A DNA stretch of 64,000 nt from Actinomycetes bacterium (GCA_036003705.1 DASYSE010000126.1:1746-65745), one strand, 5' to 3'. Counted from the first letter of the stretch, positions 32,512 through 50,562 are shown. The notes: a model not told the origin generated them from the letters alone. Made by a program: numbers and translations.

Positions 32512-33933
32512 ATGCTGGCCTGGGTGGTCGTCGGCGAGGAAGGGTGGCGGATGCGGCACGGGTCGTCCGGGGCTGCCGCCGCCCTCGGGCTGGTTGCCGT
32601 GCTCGTCCTCGGGGCGTGCGACTCGGGAGACGGCGGGCGCTATGCGGCCGAGGTCGTGCGGCCGGCCGAGGTGGTCGAGCGGGTCAGCGCACCCGGGGCG
32701 GTGCAGCCGGCGGGGCAGGCCGACCTGAAGGCGCCGGCCGCGGCCAGGGTCGAGCGGCTGGTCGTCAAGGACGGGCAGAAGGTGCGGAGCGGGCAGCTGG
32801 TGGCGGAGCTGTCCTCCGAACAGGTCGACGATCAGGTCCGGCAGGCGCAGGCGGCCGTCGACGCCGCGTCCGCGCTCGGCGGGGTGGCGCCGACGCTGCC
32901 CACCGGGTCAGCCCTCTCCGCCTTCCAGCAGGTCCAGTCGCAGGTCACCGCGACCAGCGCCGCCGTCATCGCCGCCCTGCGCTCGGCGCTGCCGTTGCTG
33001 CCGCGAGCCCAGCGGGCCCGGCTCCAGGCCAGGATCGACCGGGCGCAGGTCCGGGTGGCCGAGCTGGAGCGGCAGGCCGACCGGGCGGCCGAGGACGCGT
33101 CGGCCGCGGCCGACGCCCAGGCCGACTCCCTGCGGCGCTCGATCCAGGCGGCCACCGCCGCCCAGCGCGGCCAGGCGGAGCTGGCCCTCGAGCTGGCCAG
33201 CGACCAGCAGGAGCGCCTGACCCTGCGGGCGCCGCTGGCCGGCACCGTCCAGCTGGGCCGCTCGGGCGGTGGCGGCGGCACGGCCCTTCCCGACCTGCAG
33301 GGCCTGCCTCAGGGAGCCGAGCAGGCTCTCCAGGGGCTCGGCGGTGGGACCCAGCCCGCCCAGACCGGCCCGCCGCTGCGGGTCGGCGCCGAGGTCGCCG
33401 CCGGGCAGACCGTGGCCACCGTGTTCGACGTCAGCGACCTGCTGGTGGCCGCCGAGGTCGACGAGACCGACATCGCGCTGGTCCGGCCGGGGCAGGCGGC
33501 CCAGGTCGAGCTGGACGCCTTCCCGCAGGCCACCTTCGCGGCCACCGTGCGCCGGGTCGCGGTCGCCCCGACGGCCGGCCAGTCGGCCGCCGGCGGGGTC
33601 ACCTACCAGGTCGACCTGGCCCTTGGGGACGCCGAGTCGGCCGCCGCCGGCGCGGTCCGGCCGGTGCCGCGGGTCGGGATGACCGCCACCGCGGCCATCG
33701 AGGTCCGCAGGGCCGCCGGCAAGCTCTCGGTGCCCGGCTCGGCCCTGGTCGGCCGGTCCGGCGGTCAGGCCGTGTTCGTGGTGGAGAACGGCAAGGTCCG
33801 TCTGCGGCCGGTCCAGGTCGCCGCCGACGGCGAGGACCGGGTGGCGCTCGCCTCGGGTCTGCGCGAGGGCGAGCGGGTGGTGTCCCGCGGGGCCGAGCGC
33901 CTGCGCGACGGCCAGGACTGGCCGGGCGACTGA
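32512..33933 (+). CDS. efflux periplasmic adaptor (HlyD/MacA-like membrane fusion protein)
   Basis: N-terminal signal/anchor, long coiled-coil segments (QAQAAVDAA...RIDRAQVRVAELERQ), and a C-terminal beta-domain. Confidence 0.7.
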   Translation: MLAWVVVGEEGWRMRHGSSGAAAALGLVAVLVLGACDSGDGGRYAAEVVRPAEVVERVSAPGAVQPAGQADLKAPAAARVERLVVKDGQKVRSGQLVAELSSEQVDDQVRQAQAAVDAASALGGVAPTLPTGSALSAFQQVQSQVTATSAAVIAALRSALPLLPRAQRARLQARIDRAQVRVAELERQADRAAEDASAAADAQADSLRRSIQAATAAQRGQAELALELASDQQERLTLRAPLAGTVQLGRSGGGGGTALPDLQGLPQGAEQALQGLGGGTQPAQTGPPLRVGAEVAAGQTVATVFDVSDLLVAAEVDETDIALVRPGQAAQVELDAFPQATFAATVRRVAVAPTAGQSAAGGVTYQVDLALGDAESAAAGAVRPVPRVGMTATAAIEVRRAAGKLSVPGSALVGRSGGQAVFVVENGKVRLRPVQVAADGEDRVALASGLREGERVVSRGAERLRDGQDWPGD

Positions 33934-34010
33934 CGGTGGCCCAGCCGGGAGGTGGCGCCGGGAGCCCGCGGGTTGGCGGGGGGCCCGGGCGTCTCGAGCC
34001 CGGGCGACCG

Positions 34011-34694
34011 GTGGTGGAGGCCCTTGGGGTCAGCAAGGTGTACCGGCTGGATGGGGTCGAGGTGCGGGCGCTCGACGGGGTGGAGATGGTGGTGGAGCGG
34101 GGGGACTCGGTGGCGATCATGGGGCCGAGCGGGTCCGGCAAGTCGACCCTGCTCGGCCTGCTCGGCGGCCTGGACCGGCCGACCGGAGGGACGCTCCGGT
34201 TCGACGGCCGGGACGTCACCGGCCTGTCCGAGGACGAGCTGGCCGCGGTGCGCAACCGGGTCGTCGGCTTCGTCTTCCAGAGCTTCCAGCTGCTGGCGCG
34301 CACCCCCGCCGTGGCCAACGTCGGCCTGCCGCTGGTCTACCGCGGGCTCGGCCGGGGCGAACGCCGCCGGCTGGCGGTCGATGCGCTGCGGTCGGTCGGG
34401 CTGGCACACCGGCTGCAGCACCGGCCGTCGCAGCTCTCCGGCGGGGAGCAGCAGCGGGTGGCCATCGCCCGCGCTCTGGTCACCGAGCCGGCCATGCTGC
34501 TGGCCGACGAGCCCACCGGGAACCTCGACACCCGTTCCGGCGAGGAGGTGCTCGACCTGCTCGGCCGCCTCCACGACGAGCGCGGGGTGGCGGTGGTGGT
34601 GGTCACCCACGACCCAGGGGTGGCGGCCCGCCTCCGGCGCCGCGTCACCCTGCGCGACGGCCGCATGGTGTCGGAGCGGGAGCTGACGCGTTGA
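34011..34694 (+). CDS. MacB-like ABC transporter ATP-binding protein
   Basis: GPSGSGKSTLL, LSGGEQQRVAIARAL, LLADEPTGNLD. GTG start by amino-acid index. Confidence 0.85.
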   Translation: MVEALGVSKVYRLDGVEVRALDGVEMVVERGDSVAIMGPSGSGKSTLLGLLGGLDRPTGGTLRFDGRDVTGLSEDELAAVRNRVVGFVFQSFQLLARTPAVANVGLPLVYRGLGRGERRRLAVDALRSVGLAHRLQHRPSQLSGGEQQRVAIARALVTEPAMLLADEPTGNLDTRSGEEVLDLLGRLHDERGVAVVVVTHDPGVAARLRRRVTLRDGRMVSERELTR

Positions 34695-34715
34695 ACCGGA
34701 CGGGCCTGACCCTTG

Positions 34716-34930
34716 GGGTCCGGCCGGACGGGTCGTACCCCCGGGGTCCGGCCAGAGGGGCCCGGCCGGACGGGTCGTACCCCCGGGGTCCGGCCGGAGG
34801 GGTCCGGGGAACCCCGAAGGGGTGCCCCGGTGGATCGGGGAGCTCTTCCGAAGGGGTGCCCCGGTGGATCGGGAAGCGCTTCCGCACGGGTGCACCGGTG
34901 AATCGGGCGGCGCTTCCGAGGGGGCGCCCC
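34716..34930. repeat. tandem repeat array between the macB-like ATPase and permease genes
   Basis: A ~39-bp unit ccggacgggtcgtacccccggggtccggcc(a/g)gagggg occurs twice. A ~34-bp unit cttccgaaggggtgccccggtggatcggg occurs twice, with two further degenerate copies. Each unit holds a GGGG-n-CCCC mini-hairpin. Confidence 0.6.
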
Positions 34931-34931
34931 G

Positions 34932-36116
34932 GTGAGAGCCTCGGAGGCGGTCCGGGTCGCCTGGGAGGCGCTGCGGGCCAACAAGCTCCGCTCGGGGCTG
35001 ACCATGCTCGGGGTGGTCATCGGTGTGGCCAGCGTCGTCCTGCTGGTGGCGATCGGCAGCGGCGCCCGTGACGAGGTCACCTCAGGGGTCGAGTCGCTCG
35101 GCTCCAACATCCTGTTCGTGGCCCCCGGCAACCTCTCGTTCGGCTCGGCCCCGAGCGTCTCCCGGCTGGGGCTGGAGGACGTCCGCCGCATCGGCGACGC
35201 CATCGGCGACCCGCGCCGGGTCGCGGCCACCGTCGCCTCGGGGGAGATCGCCAGGGTCGGCATCCGGCGGGCAAGCGTCAACGTCAACGGCACCAACGAG
35301 ACCATCCCGCTGGTGTTCGACCGGACCCTGTCCCGAGGCGCCTTCTTCAGCGCCGCCGACGTGGAGACCCGCCGGAGGGTGGCGGTGCTCGGCGCCGACC
35401 CGGCCGACAGCCTGTTCCCCGACCGCGACCCGGTCGGCAAGTCGATCACCGTCGGCGGGGTGCGCTTCCGGGTCATCGGCGTGATGAGCCGGGTCGGCAC
35501 AGCTTTCGGGGTGGCCCGCGACGCCGAGCTGTTCGTGCCCGTCACCGCCGCCCAGCGCCTGTTCGGGATCACCCGGGTCGACGGGATCGCGGTGAAGGCG
35601 CCGAGCACCGGGGAGATCGACCAGGAGCAGGCGATCATCCGCGAGGTGGTCGCCCGGGCCCATCCCGACCAGGAGTACCAGGTCCTCACCCAGGAGGACA
35701 TCCTCGGCGTGGTCGGTCGCATCCTCGGCATCCTGACCCTGGTGCTGGCCTCGATCGCCGGCATCTCGCTGGTCGTGGGCGGGGTCGGGGTGATGAACAT
35801 CATGCTGGTCAGCGTGTCGGAGCGGACCCGGGAGATCGGGCTGCGCAAGGCGGTCGGAGCCCGCACCCGCGACGTGCTCCGCCAGTTCCTGCTCGAGGCG
35901 GTCGCCCTGTCCATGAGCGGCGGGGTCGTCGGGATCCTGGTCGGGATCGGCGGGGCCCTGGTGGTTGGTCGCTTCTCGCCGGTGCCGGCGGCCATCACCG
36001 GCTGGTCGGTGGCCCTGGCCTTCGGGGTGAGCGTCGCCGTCGGCGTGTTCTTCGGAGTCTGGCCGGCCCGCAAGGCAGCCCGCATGCAGCCGATCGTGGC
36101 GTTGCGCTACGAGTAG
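34932..36116 (+). CDS. ABC transporter permease (MacB/FtsX-like)
   Basis: MacB_PCD-like periplasmic domain plus FtsX TM helices. Confidence 0.85.
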   Translation: MRASEAVRVAWEALRANKLRSGLTMLGVVIGVASVVLLVAIGSGARDEVTSGVESLGSNILFVAPGNLSFGSAPSVSRLGLEDVRRIGDAIGDPRRVAATVASGEIARVGIRRASVNVNGTNETIPLVFDRTLSRGAFFSAADVETRRRVAVLGADPADSLFPDRDPVGKSITVGGVRFRVIGVMSRVGTAFGVARDAELFVPVTAAQRLFGITRVDGIAVKAPSTGEIDQEQAIIREVVARAHPDQEYQVLTQEDILGVVGRILGILTLVLASIAGISLVVGGVGVMNIMLVSVSERTREIGLRKAVGARTRDVLRQFLLEAVALSMSGGVVGILVGIGGALVVGRFSPVPAAITGWSVALAFGVSVAVGVFFGVWPARKAARMQPIVALRYE

Positions 36117-36222: not shown

Positions 36223-36798
36223 TCAGCCGGTGTTGCGCAGGGCGTCCAGGATGTGGCCGCGGATCGCCTGGGGGCCGGCCCCGAGCCGGACGAGGATCAG
36301 CATGGCCAGGCCCTCGCCCTCACGGACCAGGCCGAGCAGGAGGTGCTCGGTGCCGATGTGGCGGTGCTTGAGGGCCAGCGCCTCGCGCAGGCTCAGCTCC
36401 AACACCTTCTTGGCCCTCGGCGAGAACGGGATGTGCCCGCCGACGGGGAACGGGTTCCTGGCGCGGCGGCAGCGTGGGTCGGGATTCCAGTACAGGGCGC
36501 CAGGACCGAACGACGCCTCGACCCGGCGACGCACCTCGTCAAGGTCGATGCCGATCGCGCCCAGCGCCGCGGCGTCCCCAGGGCCCAGCGGGCCACGTCC
36601 GACCTCGGCGAGCATCTCGCGCTCCACCGCGGCCGGCGTGATCCCGAGGCCGGCCAGCACCTGGGCGGCGATGCCGTCGCCCTGCAGCAGCCCGAGCAGG
36701 AGGTGCTCGGTGCCGGTGGAGCCGTGCCCGAGCCGGCGGGCCGACGCCTGGGCGTCGACGGTCACCTTCCTGGCCCGGTCGGTGAAGCGCTCGAACAT
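36223..36798 (-). CDS. Clp amino-terminal (Clp R) domain protein
   Basis: Two ClpN repeats: MFERFTDRARKVTVDAQ...GTEHLLLGLLQ / ...AKKVLELSLREALAL...GTEHLLLGLVRE. Confidence 0.75.
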   Translation of the reverse strand: MFERFTDRARKVTVDAQASARRLGHGSTGTEHLLLGLLQGDGIAAQVLAGLGITPAAVEREMLAEVGRGPLGPGDAAALGAIGIDLDEVRRRVEASFGPGALYWNPDPRCRRARNPFPVGGHIPFSPRAKKVLELSLREALALKHRHIGTEHLLLGLVREGEGLAMLILVRLGAGPQAIRGHILDALRNTG

Positions 36799-37038
36799 TC
36801 AGTCCCTCCGCAGAAGGCCCCGGCGGGCCGCATGCTTCTTGTGGACCGCCTGCCGGCTCACCCCGAGCTCGGAGGCGATCTCCTGCCATGACCAGCCGGC
36901 GGCGCGGGCGCTGGCCACCTGCAGGGTCTCCAGCTGCTCCAGCAGCCGACGCAGGGCGGCCACCGCCCGCAGCCCGACCCGCGGGTCCTTGCTGTCCACC
37001 GCGTTCGCCAGCTCGGTTGCCTCATCCATGGCTGTCAT
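36799..37038 (-). CDS. small helix-turn-helix DNA-binding protein (sigma-70 region-4-like HTH)
   Basis: SWQEIASELGVSRQAVHKKHA; likely co-transcribed with the ClpN-domain gene. Confidence 0.7.
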   Translation of the reverse strand: MTAMDEATELANAVDSKDPRVGLRAVAALRRLLEQLETLQVASARAAGWSWQEIASELGVSRQAVHKKHAARRGLLRRD

Positions 37039-37080
37039 CCTAGGTTGACAGCCATGGGGTTGTCAACCCCTGTTGACAGC
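37027..37080 (-). promoter_or_regulatory. nested palindromic operator overlapping a TTGACA-17-TAGGAT promoter and the HTH start codon
   Basis: Minus strand: gcTGTCAACAggggTTGACAaccCCATGGCTGTCAacctaggaTGACAGCCATGGatgag. There is a 12-bp perfect inverted repeat CCATGGCTGTCA/TGACAGCCATGG, and TGTCAAC/GTTGACA half-sites occur three times. Confidence 0.5.
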
Positions 37081-37096: not shown

Positions 37097-37966
37097 CTAG
37101 CGGGTCTCGTCCGGGTCCGGCGGGGTCTGGCCGAGGAACTTCTCCAGCTCGGCGGCGATCTCGTCGCCCGAGGGGATGCGCTCGTCGGCGCCCTCCTCGA
37201 CGAGGCTCCGGATCTGCTCGACGAACTCAGCGATCTGCGGCCGCTCGCGGATCGCCTGCTCGACCTGCTCCAGGTGGTCCTTGGTGGCCGCCTCCAGCTC
37301 GGTGGCCTCGATCGCGAGCCCGGTCAGCCGGGCAAGCGTCCGCACCAGGGCGAGCGCAGCCGGCGGATGGGTGCCGCCGGCCAGGTAGGGTGGCACCCGG
37401 GCCCACAGCCCAGTGGCCGGGATGCCGGCCCGGTGGAGCCGTTCCTCGAGCACGGTCTGGATCCCGGCCGACAGCTCCACGATCGCCGGCACCGTCTCCA
37501 GCCTTGCCGCCAGGTCGGAGTCGGCCGAGGTCCCGACGACCGCCACCGGGTCGGTGTGCAGCGCCGGCGCCGGGAAGGCGCCGAGGCCGAACACCTCGAC
37601 GACGGCCAGCTCCCGGCACGCCTCGACCACCTCGTCGCAGAACGCCTTCCAGCGGAAGTCGGGCTCCGGCCCGGTCAGCAGCAGCGCGTCCCGCTCGCCG
37701 CCGGTCGCGGCCAGCGACAGCTCGGTCGGCGACCAGGTCACCTCTTCGATGGTGCCGCCGGCCAGGCGCACGATCGGTCGCCTGGCCCGGAAGTCGATCA
37801 GCTCGTCGGCGTCGAACTCGGCCAGCGGGGTCGCGTTCCAGCGCGCGCGCAGGAACACCGCCGCGGTCTGGCCGGCCAGCCCGGCGTCGGTCCAACCGTG
37901 CAGGTGGATGACCAGGAACGGGTCCCGGAGCGCCGGGCCGTCTGGGAGGTCGAGCAGCTTGCCCAT
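37097..37966 (-). CDS. PAC2 (proteasome assembly chaperone 2-like) family protein
   Basis: LVIHLHGWTDAGLAG...LLLTGPEPDFRWK is typical of bacterial PAC2 proteins. Confidence 0.75.
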   Translation of the reverse strand: MGKLLDLPDGPALRDPFLVIHLHGWTDAGLAGQTAAVFLRARWNATPLAEFDADELIDFRARRPIVRLAGGTIEEVTWSPTELSLAATGGERDALLLTGPEPDFRWKAFCDEVVEACRELAVVEVFGLGAFPAPALHTDPVAVVGTSADSDLAARLETVPAIVELSAGIQTVLEERLHRAGIPATGLWARVPPYLAGGTHPPAALALVRTLARLTGLAIEATELEAATKDHLEQVEQAIRERPQIAEFVEQIRSLVEEGADERIPSGDEIAAELEKFLGQTPPDPDETR

Positions 37967-38088: not shown

Positions 38089-39570
38089 GTGACCAGCCCC
38101 ACCCGCCCGTCGCCGGGATCGCCGTTCCGCCCGTTCCGGCACCGCGCGTTCGCCACCGTGTGGGCGGGGAGCTTCGTCTCCAACATCGGCACCTGGATGG
38201 AGACGGTGGCCATCGGGGTCTACGTCACCCAGGCCACCGGCCAGGCGGCCTGGACGGGCACGGTGGCCGCCCTCACCTATGTGCCGACGGTGCTCCTCGG
38301 GCCCTTCGGCGGCGCGCTCGCCGACCGCTTCGACCGCCGGCGGTTCCTGGTCGCCGTGACCCTGTTCCAGACGCTGCTGGCGGCCACCCTCACCCTGCTG
38401 GCGGCGACCGATCGGCTGTCGGTGGCCGCCGTGGCCGCCATCGTGCTGCTGGCCGGCTGCGCGTTCGCCGTGGCCATGCCGGCCGTCCAGGCCATGACCC
38501 CCGACCTGGTCGGCGCCGACGACCTGCTCGGAGCCATGAGCCTGGGAGCGGCCCAGTTCAACCTGGGGCGGGTGGCCGGGCCGGCCCTTGCCGGGCTGGT
38601 CATCACCGCCGGGGGGCTGGCCTGGGCGTTCGGGTTGAACGCTGTCAGCTTCGGCGCGGTCCTGCTCGCCCTCGCCCTGGTCCGCATCCCGCCGCTGGCC
38701 AGGAGCGACGGGCAGCGGCCCAGGGTGCTGCGGACCATCGCCGAGGGAGTGTCCGCGGCCCGCCGTGACCCTGGCATCCGCACCGCCCTGCTGCTCCTGC
38801 TGGCCACCACCTTCCTGGTGTCGCCGTTCATCGGGCTGGTGCCGGCCGTTGCCATCAAGGTGTTCGGGCGGGGCGCCACCGGCACCTCGGCGCTGGTCAC
38901 CGCCCAGGGCGTCGGGGCGGTCTGCTCGGCCCTGGCCGCCGGGCCCTTGGCCGGCCTGCTGGGCCGGCGCCGCTTGCTGGTCTCGGCGCTGCTGCTTGTC
39001 GGCCCGGCGGCGGTCCTGTACGGGCTGGCCCCGACGTTTCCCCTCGCCGTGGTCGCGATCGCCGTGCTCGGCTTCGTATACCTGGCCGTGCTGTCGGGCA
39101 CCAGCACCGTCTGCCAGCTTCGGGCCCCGCGCGAGCTGCGCGCCCGCATCGCCAGCCTGTTCATGCTCGGGGTCGGCGGCGGGCACGCGCTCGGGCTGGT
39201 CATCCAGGGGTGGCTGGGGGACCGGGTCGGGCTGCCGGTCGTGACCATGGCCACCGGGCTGCTGCTGCTCGGGATCGTGGTCGCGATGCGCCTGCTCCGT
39301 CCCGGGCTGCTGGAGGCGATGGAACCTTCAGGGGATGTCCATGCCCTCCAGGCGGCGGACGGACAGCACCAGGGCGGCCAGGGTGACGACGGCGGCGAGC
39401 ACGGTCGCGCTGACCGGCCCCAGCCGGGTGGTGAGATCGAGCCCTCCGCCGCGCAGGACGGCCGCCAGCACGCCCTCGGTGTAGCCGCGGATGGACAGCG
39501 ACGACGCCGAAGGCGCGACCGAGACGACCGCACCCTCCCAGAGCAGGGCATAGGCCAGGCCGACCAGTAG
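38089..39570 (+). CDS. MFS transporter (EntS/enterobactin-exporter-like)
   Basis: 12 TM helices, FRHRAFATVWAGSFVSNIGTWM. The last ~80 codons overlap the convergent ABC-2 permease gene, and the true C-terminus may be earlier. Confidence 0.7.
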   Translation: MTSPTRPSPGSPFRPFRHRAFATVWAGSFVSNIGTWMETVAIGVYVTQATGQAAWTGTVAALTYVPTVLLGPFGGALADRFDRRRFLVAVTLFQTLLAATLTLLAATDRLSVAAVAAIVLLAGCAFAVAMPAVQAMTPDLVGADDLLGAMSLGAAQFNLGRVAGPALAGLVITAGGLAWAFGLNAVSFGAVLLALALVRIPPLARSDGQRPRVLRTIAEGVSAARRDPGIRTALLLLLATTFLVSPFIGLVPAVAIKVFGRGATGTSALVTAQGVGAVCSALAAGPLAGLLGRRRLLVSALLLVGPAAVLYGLAPTFPLAVVAIAVLGFVYLAVLSGTSTVCQLRAPRELRARIASLFMLGVGGGHALGLVIQGWLGDRVGLPVVTMATGLLLLGIVVAMRLLRPGLLEAMEPSGDVHALQAADGQHQGGQGDDGGEHGRADRPQPGGEIEPSAAQDGRQHALGVAADGQRRRRRRDRDDRTLPEQGIGQADQ

Positions 39571-49547: not shown

Positions 49548-49728
49548 CCGGACGGGTCGCCCCTGCGGCCGGGGGCGAGCCGGTCTGGCGGCGGCCGGGC
49601 GCTCGGGCGACCATGGCGCGCAGCCGGGCGCAACCTTCGGGGTCGGCCCTCAGCGGCCCCGCCTTCGCCGTCCTTGGCCACCTCCCGGCAACCGCCACGG
49701 GCGTGGCACCGCAGGGGGTCGTGCCACA

Positions 49729-50562
49729 ATGCCTGCCATGGCTGGGTACGACTGGATCACCTTCACCTCGGATTACGGGTTGGACGACCATTTCGTGGGG
49801 GTGTGCCACGGGGTGATGGCCAGGGTCGCCCCGCGGGTCCGGGTGATCGATGTGAGCCATGCGGTGCGGGCGCAGGACGTGCGGCACGGGGCGGTGCTGC
49901 TGGCCCAGGCCGTGCCGTTTCTCCCGGTGGCGGTGCATCTGGCCGTCGTCGACCCGGAGGTCGGGACCGGGCGGGGGATGGTGGCGATCGAGGCCGGCGG
50001 GCAGGTGCTGGTCGGGCCCGACAACGGGCTGCTGATCTGGGCGGCCGAGGCGCTCGGCGGGGCCGGCCGGACGCATGCGCTCCAGAACCCGCGCTACCGG
50101 CTGGGCCCGGTGTCGAGGACCTTCCACGGGCGCGACGTGTTCGCGCCGGCGGCGGCCCATCTCGCCACCGGGGTCGACCCGGCCGAGCTGGGGCCGGAGG
50201 TCGACCCGGACCGGCTGGTCCGGCTGGAGCGGGCGGCATCTCGGGTCGACGGCGACCAGGTCCACGGCAGCGTCGTGCTGGTCGACCACTTCGGCAACCT
50301 GGCGCTCGACCTGCGCCGGGCGGACCTGGAGCGGGTCGGGGTGGCGACCGGCGACCCGGTGGACCTCCACCTCGGCGGCCAGACCCACCGGCTGCGGTTC
50401 GCGGACACGTTCGGGTCGGTGCCGACCGACAGCCTGGTCCTGCACGAGGACTCCTTCGGTTCGCTGGCCGTGGCCGTCAACCGCGGCCGGGCCGCCGAGC
50501 GACTCGATGCCCGCTCCGGCGACCCGGTGGTGGTCGCCCGCGTCGCGCCGGGCCGGGACTGA
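49729..50562 (+). CDS. SAM hydroxide adenosyltransferase (SAM hydrolase / DUF62 fluorinase-like family)
   Basis: ITFTSDYGLDDHFVGVCHGVM...VDHFGNL matches the N- and C-domain motifs of the family. Confidence 0.8.
   Translation: MPAMAGYDWITFTSDYGLDDHFVGVCHGVMARVAPRVRVIDVSHAVRAQDVRHGAVLLAQAVPFLPVAVHLAVVDPEVGTGRGMVAIEAGGQVLVGPDNGLLIWAAEALGGAGRTHALQNPRYRLGPVSRTFHGRDVFAPAAAHLATGVDPAELGPEVDPDRLVRLERAASRVDGDQVHGSVVLVDHFGNLALDLRRADLERVGVATGDPVDLHLGGQTHRLRFADTFGSVPTDSLVLHEDSFGSLAVAVNRGRAAERLDARSGDPVVVARVAPGRD

Follow-up and report, generated by a model that had tools for sequence, protein, structure and literature searches.

A predicted leaderless promoter with dual operators precedes an actinomycete HTH-Clp_N gene pair and resembles the ClpC2 autorepressor circuit

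A 64,000-nt stretch of DNA from an Actinomycetes bacterium (GCA_036003705.1 DASYSE010000126.1:1746-65745), referred to here as the window, carries on its minus strand a small open reading frame (ORF) encoding a helix-turn-helix (HTH) protein, followed directly by an ORF encoding a protein with two Clp_N repeats. The 54 bp that precede and include the HTH start codon (minus strand, 37080..37027) read GCTGTCAACAGGGGTTGACAACCCCATGGCTGTCAACCTAGGATGACAGCCATGG by direct reading, exactly as quoted in a first-pass annotation that had been made from the DNA sequence and had proposed an autoregulated, leaderless promoter at this position. We analyzed this segment, the two encoded proteins, and their homologs, and compared them with ClpC2, a mycobacterial autorepressor. 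The features of the locus are listed in Table 1.

Instead of the nested palindromes originally reported, the segment contains one 16-bp operator, GTCAAC-N4-RTTGAC, in two tandem copies 28 bp apart. The distal copy, site A, contains the palindrome TGTCAAC-n4-GTTGACA (n4 denoting a 4-nt spacer) exactly as had been described, and its core, GTCAAC-N4-GTTGAC at 37062-37077, is the sole match without mismatch to GTCAAC-N4-RTTGAC in the window. The core of the proximal copy, site B (37034-37049), has one mismatch, GATGAC versus RTTGAC, and ends 4 nt from the ATG. A repeat finder delimited the copies as two 23-nt units (37080..37058 and 37052..37030) of 78% identity with starts 28 bp apart, each of them a pseudopalindrome of the form GCTGTCAAC-N4-RTTGACAGC. 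Three TGTCAAC half-sites had been counted in the 54 bp; all three exact copies are there, along with a fourth half-site, TGTCATC, and three of the four exact copies of TGTCAAC in the 64 kb fall inside 37027-37080. With up to one mismatch allowed, GTCAAC-N4-RTTGAC matched sites A and B only, against 0.06 matches expected in 64 kb, and 0 of 100 shuffles reached the observed count. A genome search for such sites had been recommended as a guide to a possible regulon; within the 64 kb, none was found beyond sites A and B, with either n4 or n5 spacers and at most one mismatch.

A promoter is embedded in these palindromes, as the first-pass annotation had recognized, with a spacer of 18 rather than 17 nt. 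A promoter scan of 2.3 kb returned the single site TTGACA-18-TAGGAT (10 of 12 hexamer positions matched; 0.0 sites expected). The sequence has the features of a leaderless promoter of the sigma-70 (HrdB/SigA) type, namely a TTGACA -35 hexamer, a spacer within 16-18 nt, a TAnnnT -10 hexamer, a start codon within the next 6-8 nt, and no Shine-Dalgarno sequence.

Table 1. Coordinates of the operator-promoter segment and the two genes, numbered from the first nucleotide of the window
Feature	Position	Strand	Remarks
Distal operator (site A)	37061..37078	-	TGTCAAC-AGGG-GTTGACA; perfect 7+7 inverted repeat (repeat finder)
-35 hexamer TTGACA	37061..37066	-	Right half of site A (promoter scan)
Proximal operator (site B)	37033..37050	-	TGTCAAC-CTAG-GATGACA
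-10 hexamer TAGGAT (TAnnnT type)	37037..37042	-	Straddles the site B spacer and its right half-site; 18 nt past -35
32-bp span with perfect 12-nt arms CCATGGCTGTCA ... TGACAGCCATGG	37026..37057	-	Arms 37046-37057 and 37026-37037, exact
HTH start codon ATG, predicted leaderless transcription start	37027..37029	-	A 7 nt past -10
HTH gene, 76 aa, putative autorepressor	36799..37029	-	Pfam HTH_23 and Sigma70_r4_2
Shine-Dalgarno GGAGGG of Clp_N gene	36804..36809	-	Inside 3' end of HTH ORF, 5 nt from ATG (direct read)
Clp_N gene, 191 aa, two repeats	36223..36798	-	Pfam Clp_N x2, E 9e-28; ClpC1-NTD-like (NTD, N-terminal domain)

Relatives of the HTH protein occur in the genomes of at least 586 species. 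A clustered database returned 3349 of them at E ≤ 1e-3, those listed being nearly all 69-88 aa long with one of 99 aa, and a search of cluster representatives gave 3002 matches, again small proteins. A scan of one genome per species provided 80 loci, hence 81 promoters with that of the window, spanning Streptomyces, Actinacidiphila, Embleya, Amycolatopsis, Lentzea, Saccharothrix, Actinosynnema, Actinophytocola, Segeticoccus, and Oryzihumus, and also including a Nitriliruptorales metagenome-assembled genome and uncultured organisms closely related to that of the window. Both operators, GTCAAC-N4-RTTGAC, were present in 78 of the 81 promoters, and their start-to-start distance was 27 or 28 bp in all 78. 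In these 78 loci, the -35 hexamer was TTGAC(A/G), the -10 hexamer TAnRTT, and the promoter spacer 17-18 nt; T occupied the first -10 position in 75, with A at the second position and T at the last in all. The ATG or GTG start codon lay 3 or 4 nt past the site B core and 6-7 nt past the -10 hexamer (78 of 81 loci). A 5' untranslated region would not fit into this interval, and the transcript is therefore predicted to be leaderless, in agreement with the original proposal. HTH ORFs were 69-83 aa long in all 80 loci. A Clp_N gene starting MFERFT directly followed in 77 of 80, and the two genes overlapped by TGATG or ATGATG in 59 of 76, an arrangement that supports the predicted cotranscription of the two genes. 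The PAC2-family gene that precedes the segment in the window was found upstream only in its closest relatives, L001 and L003. Since the register of the element to the HTH start is kept despite unrelated upstream genes, the element belongs to the HTH gene and not to the preceding gene.

The last two bases of the distal spacer (columns 28-29 of alignment A2; window 37068-37069) were G in 70 and 74 of the 78 loci, respectively, giving nnGG-GTTGAC, while in the proximal spacer the constraint comes from the TA of the -10 hexamer. The distal GG may extend the -35 contact or belong to an asymmetric operator.

Conservation also bears on whether the palindromes act as DNA or as RNA, either as a terminator of the PAC2 gene or as a 5' structure. 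The PAC2 gene, on the same strand, has its stop codon 17 nt upstream of the segment, which, taken as RNA, folds stably (-39.8 kcal/mol; z-score -2.9). Nevertheless, a scan for intrinsic terminators found nothing, there is no U-tract at the palindromes, and Rfam held no match for the segment. Across 41 aligned homologous promoters, the GTCAA/TTGAC core was invariant or nearly so and its GTCA/TGAC pairs did not vary, while spacers and flanks did, and covariation was no higher than in shuffled alignments (0.096 versus 0.092; 160 of 500 shuffles reached the score). The perfect 12-bp inverted repeat named in the first-pass annotation has exact arms in the window, but its outer arms are not conserved: CCATGG(C) occurs in this sequence only, being absent even from the closest relatives L001-L003, and the share of the 41 promoters in which the outer seven pairs were unpaired ranged from roughly a quarter to nine-tenths. 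Within the 32-bp span, the functional and conserved part, judged by this alignment, is the inner TGTCA/TGACA only. Pairs that are either invariant in sequence or unpaired are not expected of an RNA hairpin, nor is a register to the HTH start that persists beside unrelated upstream genes, and a leaderless transcript would exclude the palindromes altogether. Together, an invariant core with variable flanks and spacers, the lack of covariation, the missing terminator tail, and the empty Rfam search argue for a protein-binding DNA site, and we regard an RNA hairpin as scarcely credible.

The HTH gene itself had been read as encoding 79 aa. The alternative start chosen by the ORF caller, ATG 37038, falls within the -10 hexamer, while a conserved N-terminus, M-x-E-A-T, aligns at ATG 37029 and many database homologs are called at 76 aa. 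Because relatives share the M-x-E-A-T start, ATG 37029 was taken as the start codon, giving 76 aa. An AlphaFold2 model of the protein (predicted local distance difference test score 89.8) has four helices, with a short helix and a long helix ahead of the HTH at residues 48-73. NCBIfam has no specific family for either this protein or the Clp_N protein. Profile comparison established that the HTH protein is homologous to the N-terminal HTH region of ClpC2. Its profile aligned to ClpC2 residues 41-84 (hhalign 94.6%, E 6.5e-8) and to a profile of eight ClpC2 N-termini from Mycobacterium and Streptomyces (hhalign 95.6%, E 1.3e-8, 39 columns). The alignment covers the HTH only, the first ~30 residues of the HTH protein remaining unaligned. 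The common stretch reads AR..G.SW..I....GV[ST][RK]QA..K, with the shared recognition-helix motif [ST][RK]QA[VA][HQ]K[KR]. The M. tuberculosis ClpC2 sequence used here was 100% identical to PDB 8ada (residues 1-72) and had one mismatch to 8ad9 over residues 94-252; with this mismatch corrected, identity to and coverage of database protein P0270 were both 100%.

In mycobacteria, ClpC2 is ~250 aa long, has a C-terminal domain similar to the ClpC1 NTD, and is an experimentally proven autorepressor (PMC10030653); the "ClpC2" of Streptomyces papers is another protein, a full-length AAA+ ATPase. The operator of mycobacterial ClpC2 is the pseudopalindrome CGTCAAC-n5-GTTGACG, located 1-2 nt ahead of the ORF and usually duplicated upstream so that -35 and -10 are covered; a leaderless clpC2 transcript was inferred from the positions of these elements, and cyclomarin A (CymA) frees the DNA from ClpC2 (PMC10030653). 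The published M. tuberculosis probe, AACGTCAACCTACTGTTGACGTC, reads AACGTCAAC-CTACT-GTTGACGTC-ATG, and the reverse complement of the M. smegmatis primer reads CAAC-CTAAC-GTTGACGGC-ATG (PMC10030653). According to a 2026 preprint, ClpC2 binds its dual operators cooperatively, is released by phosphoarginine (pArg) and rufomycin, and in M. smegmatis is induced ~300-fold (PMC13345244). The published evidence comprises electrophoretic mobility shift assays, reporter assays, biolayer interferometry, and in vitro transcription (PMC10030653; PMC13345244).

The window locus shares with ClpC2 (Rv2667 and its M. smegmatis counterpart) identical GTCAAC/GTTGAC half-sites, two operators that cover the -35 and -10 at a distance of 27-29 bp, a start codon 1-4 nt past the proximal site, a promoter of the TTGACn/TAnnnT type, a homologous HTH, and a leaderless start, the last of these predicted here. 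Its Clp_N partner also retains F2, F80, and E89, the CymA-contact residues. The two systems differ in that ClpC2 is a single polypeptide of 225-265 aa with n5 operator spacers, whereas the window has two translationally coupled ORFs with a TGA between them and n4 spacers at both sites. Moreover, the HTH protein has at its N-terminal end a stretch, MxEATKLA...DPRVGLRAV, with no relation to the VRLDELINAIK helix of ClpC2, and the window Clp_N protein is far closer to the ClpC1 NTD, with both GTEH motifs and an extra hairpin of ~46 aa.

Given this difference in spacer, we scanned metagenomes for fused loci using GTCAAC-N5-GTTGAC-N3-ATG. Of 120 matches, 23 had a ClpC2-like ORF at the ATG, comprising 16 complete fused ORFs of 225-256 aa, 5 cut by contig ends, and 2 small HTH-only ORFs. 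The second operator was also n5, starting 27-29 bp upstream, in all 20 fused metagenomic loci with enough upstream sequence. Fused ClpC2 was common in Streptomyces, where three of three promoters (L202, L203, and L204) were n5/n5, with the ATG 1-2 nt past GTTGACA (GTTGTCA in L202). Architecture and spacer thus covary, fused loci being n5/n5 and split loci n4/n4, and the Streptomyces lineage holds both forms. This pattern matters for the possibility that the sites are bound by a regulator encoded elsewhere, such as a fused ClpC2 paralog or a general heat-shock repressor. Fused ClpC2 recognizes the same half-site and is frequent in Streptomyces, yet the consistent pairing of spacer with architecture argues for separate cognate pairs, and neither an n5 site nor a ClpC2 gene was found in the 64-kb window. 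A tblastn match to ClpC2 at 49566-49775 (E 0.003) was weak, lay in no convincing ORF, and was discounted. Known heat-shock operators include the controlling inverted repeat of chaperone expression (CIRCE), TTAGCACTC-N9-GAGTGCTAA, and the HspR-associated inverted repeat (HAIR), CTTGAGT-N7-ACTCAAG. By direct reading, the operator sequence matches neither, and control by a regulator encoded elsewhere appears very improbable. Literature searches on a split HTH/Clp_N system, on ClpC3, and on the motif returned ClpC2 papers only; the split-gene, n4-spacer form is apparently an undescribed variant of a known autorepressor system and not a new kind of element.

The second gene encodes the two-repeat Clp N-domain protein that had been recognized at the outset. 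Against solved structures, it matched the ClpC1 NTD at E 1e-39 and the ClpC2 C-terminal domain at 1e-13 to 1e-17. Its alignment to ClpC1 covers residues 1-74 and 75-142, which in the window protein are separated by a ~46-aa insertion. The window protein keeps the equivalents of ClpC1 F2, T6, T30/E31, F80, E89, and T105/E106 and both GTEH motifs, and equivalents of the CymA-contact residues were widespread in the family (F2 in 71 of 77, F80 in 67, and E89 in 70). The insertion (window 36442-36579; approximately residues 74-119) forms an extra helical hairpin between the Clp repeats, carries the family-wide motif ALxAIGIDLDEVRxRVEExFGPGAL, and resembles a duplicate of the last hairpin of repeat 1; the ClpC1 NTD lacks it, as does the C-terminal domain of ClpC2. 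By analogy with ClpC2, a role as ligand sensor or ClpC1-NTD-like decoy would be likelier for this protein than that of adaptor or anti-adaptor, as first suggested.

The HTH stop codon TGA (36801-36799) directly adjoins the Clp_N ATG (36798) in the same frame, and readthrough of that single TGA would yield a 268-aa ClpC2-like fusion. Readthrough as a conserved route to a fusion protein was rejected, because no more than 5 of 76 loci, L001-L003 and L030 among them, share this in-frame arrangement; the majority show the TGATG or ATGATG overlap instead, making programmed readthrough unlikely as a family trait. Several long matches among the cluster representatives (P0232, P0265, P0182, P0167, and P0221) look like frameshifted or overextended gene calls, and only P0187 appears to be a true in-frame HTH-Clp_N fusion.

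Considering the sequence evidence together with the analogy to ClpC2, we think it probable, with good confidence, that the 54 bp constitute the core promoter and operator of a two-gene HTH and Clp_N operon that forms a self-repressed, leaderless, ClpC2-like split circuit. Autoregulation by the HTH protein, already proposed from the repeated half-sites, is now further suggested by its homology to the ClpC2 HTH, the shared half-sites and dual layout, and the predicted leaderless start. In such a circuit, each HTH monomer would contact one GTCAAC half-site, with half-site centers 10 bp apart, and HTH dimers would bind both operators and occlude RNA polymerase, so that a near-consensus promoter would be held shut by its own product. 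The Clp_N gene would be translated both from its own Shine-Dalgarno sequence and by coupling to the HTH gene, and its product would be a free-standing copy of the ClpC1 domain that receives substrates and antibiotics. This protein probably associates with the HTH repressor, as the ClpC2 precedent suggests. Its binding of pArg-tagged proteins or of ClpC1-targeting cyclic peptides would lift repression, and the decoy could then be made in quantity under proteotoxic or antibiotic stress.

Another scheme is that the HTH protein is a plain, ligand-independent homeostatic autorepressor and the Clp_N protein an unregulated cargo making no contact with it. The two functions do reside on separate polypeptides, and one Streptomyces locus (L080) has the HTH gene alone with both operators. 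Gene fusions are commonly taken as a sign of physical interaction, and natural fusions of both domains exist (ClpC2 and P0187). The gene pair, translationally coupled, also recurs in 77 of 80 loci, and the combination of a near-consensus promoter with dual operators typifies a strongly inducible gene, as the induction of M. smegmatis ClpC2 illustrates (PMC13345244). On this evidence, a plain autorepressor with an independent cargo is unlikely.

The split arrangement further raises the question of which domain reads the DNA. Taylor et al. place the DNA contacts of ClpC2 in the C-terminal domain, at R185/R189, and the R185A/R189A protein binds DNA less well (PMC10030653). By extension, the Clp_N protein could read the operators through residues of the R185/R189 type, the HTH-like protein serving only as a dimerization or oligomerization scaffold, and the equivalent of R185 is indeed R in 73 of 77 split Clp_N proteins. 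At the R189 equivalent, however, 61 of the 77 have G or A and only 3 have R, although the half-site is the same. ClpC1, too, has R at the position of R185 and, according to the legend of Supplementary Fig. 11, binds DNA only nonspecifically, and ClpC2 without its N-terminal domain binds DNA poorly (PMC10030653). The crystallized fragment of the ClpC2 "dimerization domain" (8ada; residues 1-72) ends at GKSMGV, immediately ahead of the predicted recognition helix TKQAAQKRF, and an HTH could therefore have been missed; the term "helix-turn-helix" occurs in neither ClpC2 paper (PMC10030653; PMC13345244). Operators were also kept in loci with no Clp_N gene. We accordingly find it quite unlikely that the Clp_N protein reads the operators with the HTH protein as a mere scaffold.

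That the HTH and not the Clp_N protein reads the DNA is instead suggested, though not decisively, by the parallel conservation of the recognition helix and the half-site, by the prevalence of G or A at the R189 equivalent, and by three loci that retain operators without Clp_N. In Streptomyces L023 (4249-4874), the HTH gene and both n4 operators are followed by a VapB/VapC-like pair (76-aa antitoxin-like and 132-aa PIN-like ORFs). In Streptomyces L080 (4001-4210), the HTH gene with both n4 operators is followed by a convergent gene. In L090 (403-708, minus strand), on metagenome contig Ga0190265_10238467, a 101-aa member of the HTH superfamily lies behind dual n5 GTCAAC operators, and the overlapping downstream ORF is not Clp_N, having a weak TPR_4 match only. 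The HTH-operator module seems to be reused with different partners, as in RelI-RelS. Tentatively, and as a possibility we rate below even, the locus may be a natural two-polypeptide ClpC2 sensor-repressor in which the 76-aa HTH protein alone would read the operators and the ClpC1-NTD-like protein would sense ligand in trans.

Several points weigh against these interpretations. Besides the published assignment of the ClpC2 DNA contacts to the C-terminal domain, Foldseek with the HTH model gave weak, generic HTH matches only. The loci lacking Clp_N are few and could be recent gene losses. Finally, pArg-site residues are only partly conserved across the family, the T30 equivalent being E in 44 of 77 proteins and the T105 equivalent D in 32 of 77; the ligand may therefore vary by lineage.

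Other known relatives of the two proteins were also compared. Among solved structures, the best match for the HTH protein was RelI (9sdc; E 0.001). RelI (Rv2664) is the HTH antitoxin of RelS-RelI and has been tied to the ClpC2 HTH region by HHpred at 99% (PMC13284704). It has a similar size (85 aa) and the same helix plan, a long helix followed by the HTH. Unlike the window protein, its partner is an upstream BrnT-like RNase toxin, RelS, rather than a downstream Clp_N protein, and no GTCAAC operator has been reported for relSI. No RelS-type toxin gene lies beside the window HTH gene, whose neighbors by Pfam are the PAC2 and Clp_N genes. The ClpC1 NTD, the receptor for pArg, cyclomarin, rufomycin, and ecumicin, has the same MFERFTDRAR start as the Clp_N protein, which differs from ClpC1 in lacking AAA+ modules, in standing alone at 191 aa, and in its inter-repeat insertion. 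ClpC3, as described in a review, is a mycobacterial stand-alone Clp-repeat protein that is induced by ClpC1-targeting antibiotics and buffers them (PMC12678426). By that description, it resembles the window protein in being small and Clp_N-only, and differs in that its Clp repeat domain and pArg receptor are not preserved (PMC12678426), whereas both are preserved in the window protein.

Upstream of the operon, the PAC2-family gene (proteasome-assembly-chaperone-like; E 1e-50) occupies 37097-37966 on the minus strand and ends 17 nt upstream of the distal operator, so that in the window and its closest relatives a proteasome-related gene stands beside a Clp-related one. The operon is flanked by an efflux-type cluster (32512-36116, plus strand) and an MFS_3 transporter gene (38089-39570, plus strand). 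The cluster includes a MacB-like permease (MacB_PCD and FtsX by Pfam), together with ORFs judged by eye to encode a HlyD-like adaptor and an ABC ATPase. No operator-like sites were found near the efflux-type cluster or the MFS_3 gene.

ClpC1 is a leading drug target in tuberculosis, and ClpC2 acts as an inducible sponge and sensor that blunts ClpC1-directed antibiotics. The split form extends ClpC2-type logic to Streptomyces and many soil actinomycetes, including producers of ClpC1-targeting peptides. It parts the DNA-binding from the ligand-binding module by nature, and so makes it possible to test directly which domain reads the operator and how the signal is passed, while the 1-bp difference in spacer between fused and split loci provides a clean case of operator geometry diverging with repressor architecture. 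If the HTH protein alone reads the operators, DNA reading by M. tuberculosis ClpC2 would also reside in its overlooked N-terminal HTH, and not in the C-terminal domain as published. The 4-nt and 5-nt spacers would then insulate two paralogous circuits, both present in Streptomyces and possibly answering different signals, and antibiotic-producing actinomycetes would carry a widespread inducible decoy for natural products directed at the NTD of ClpC1.

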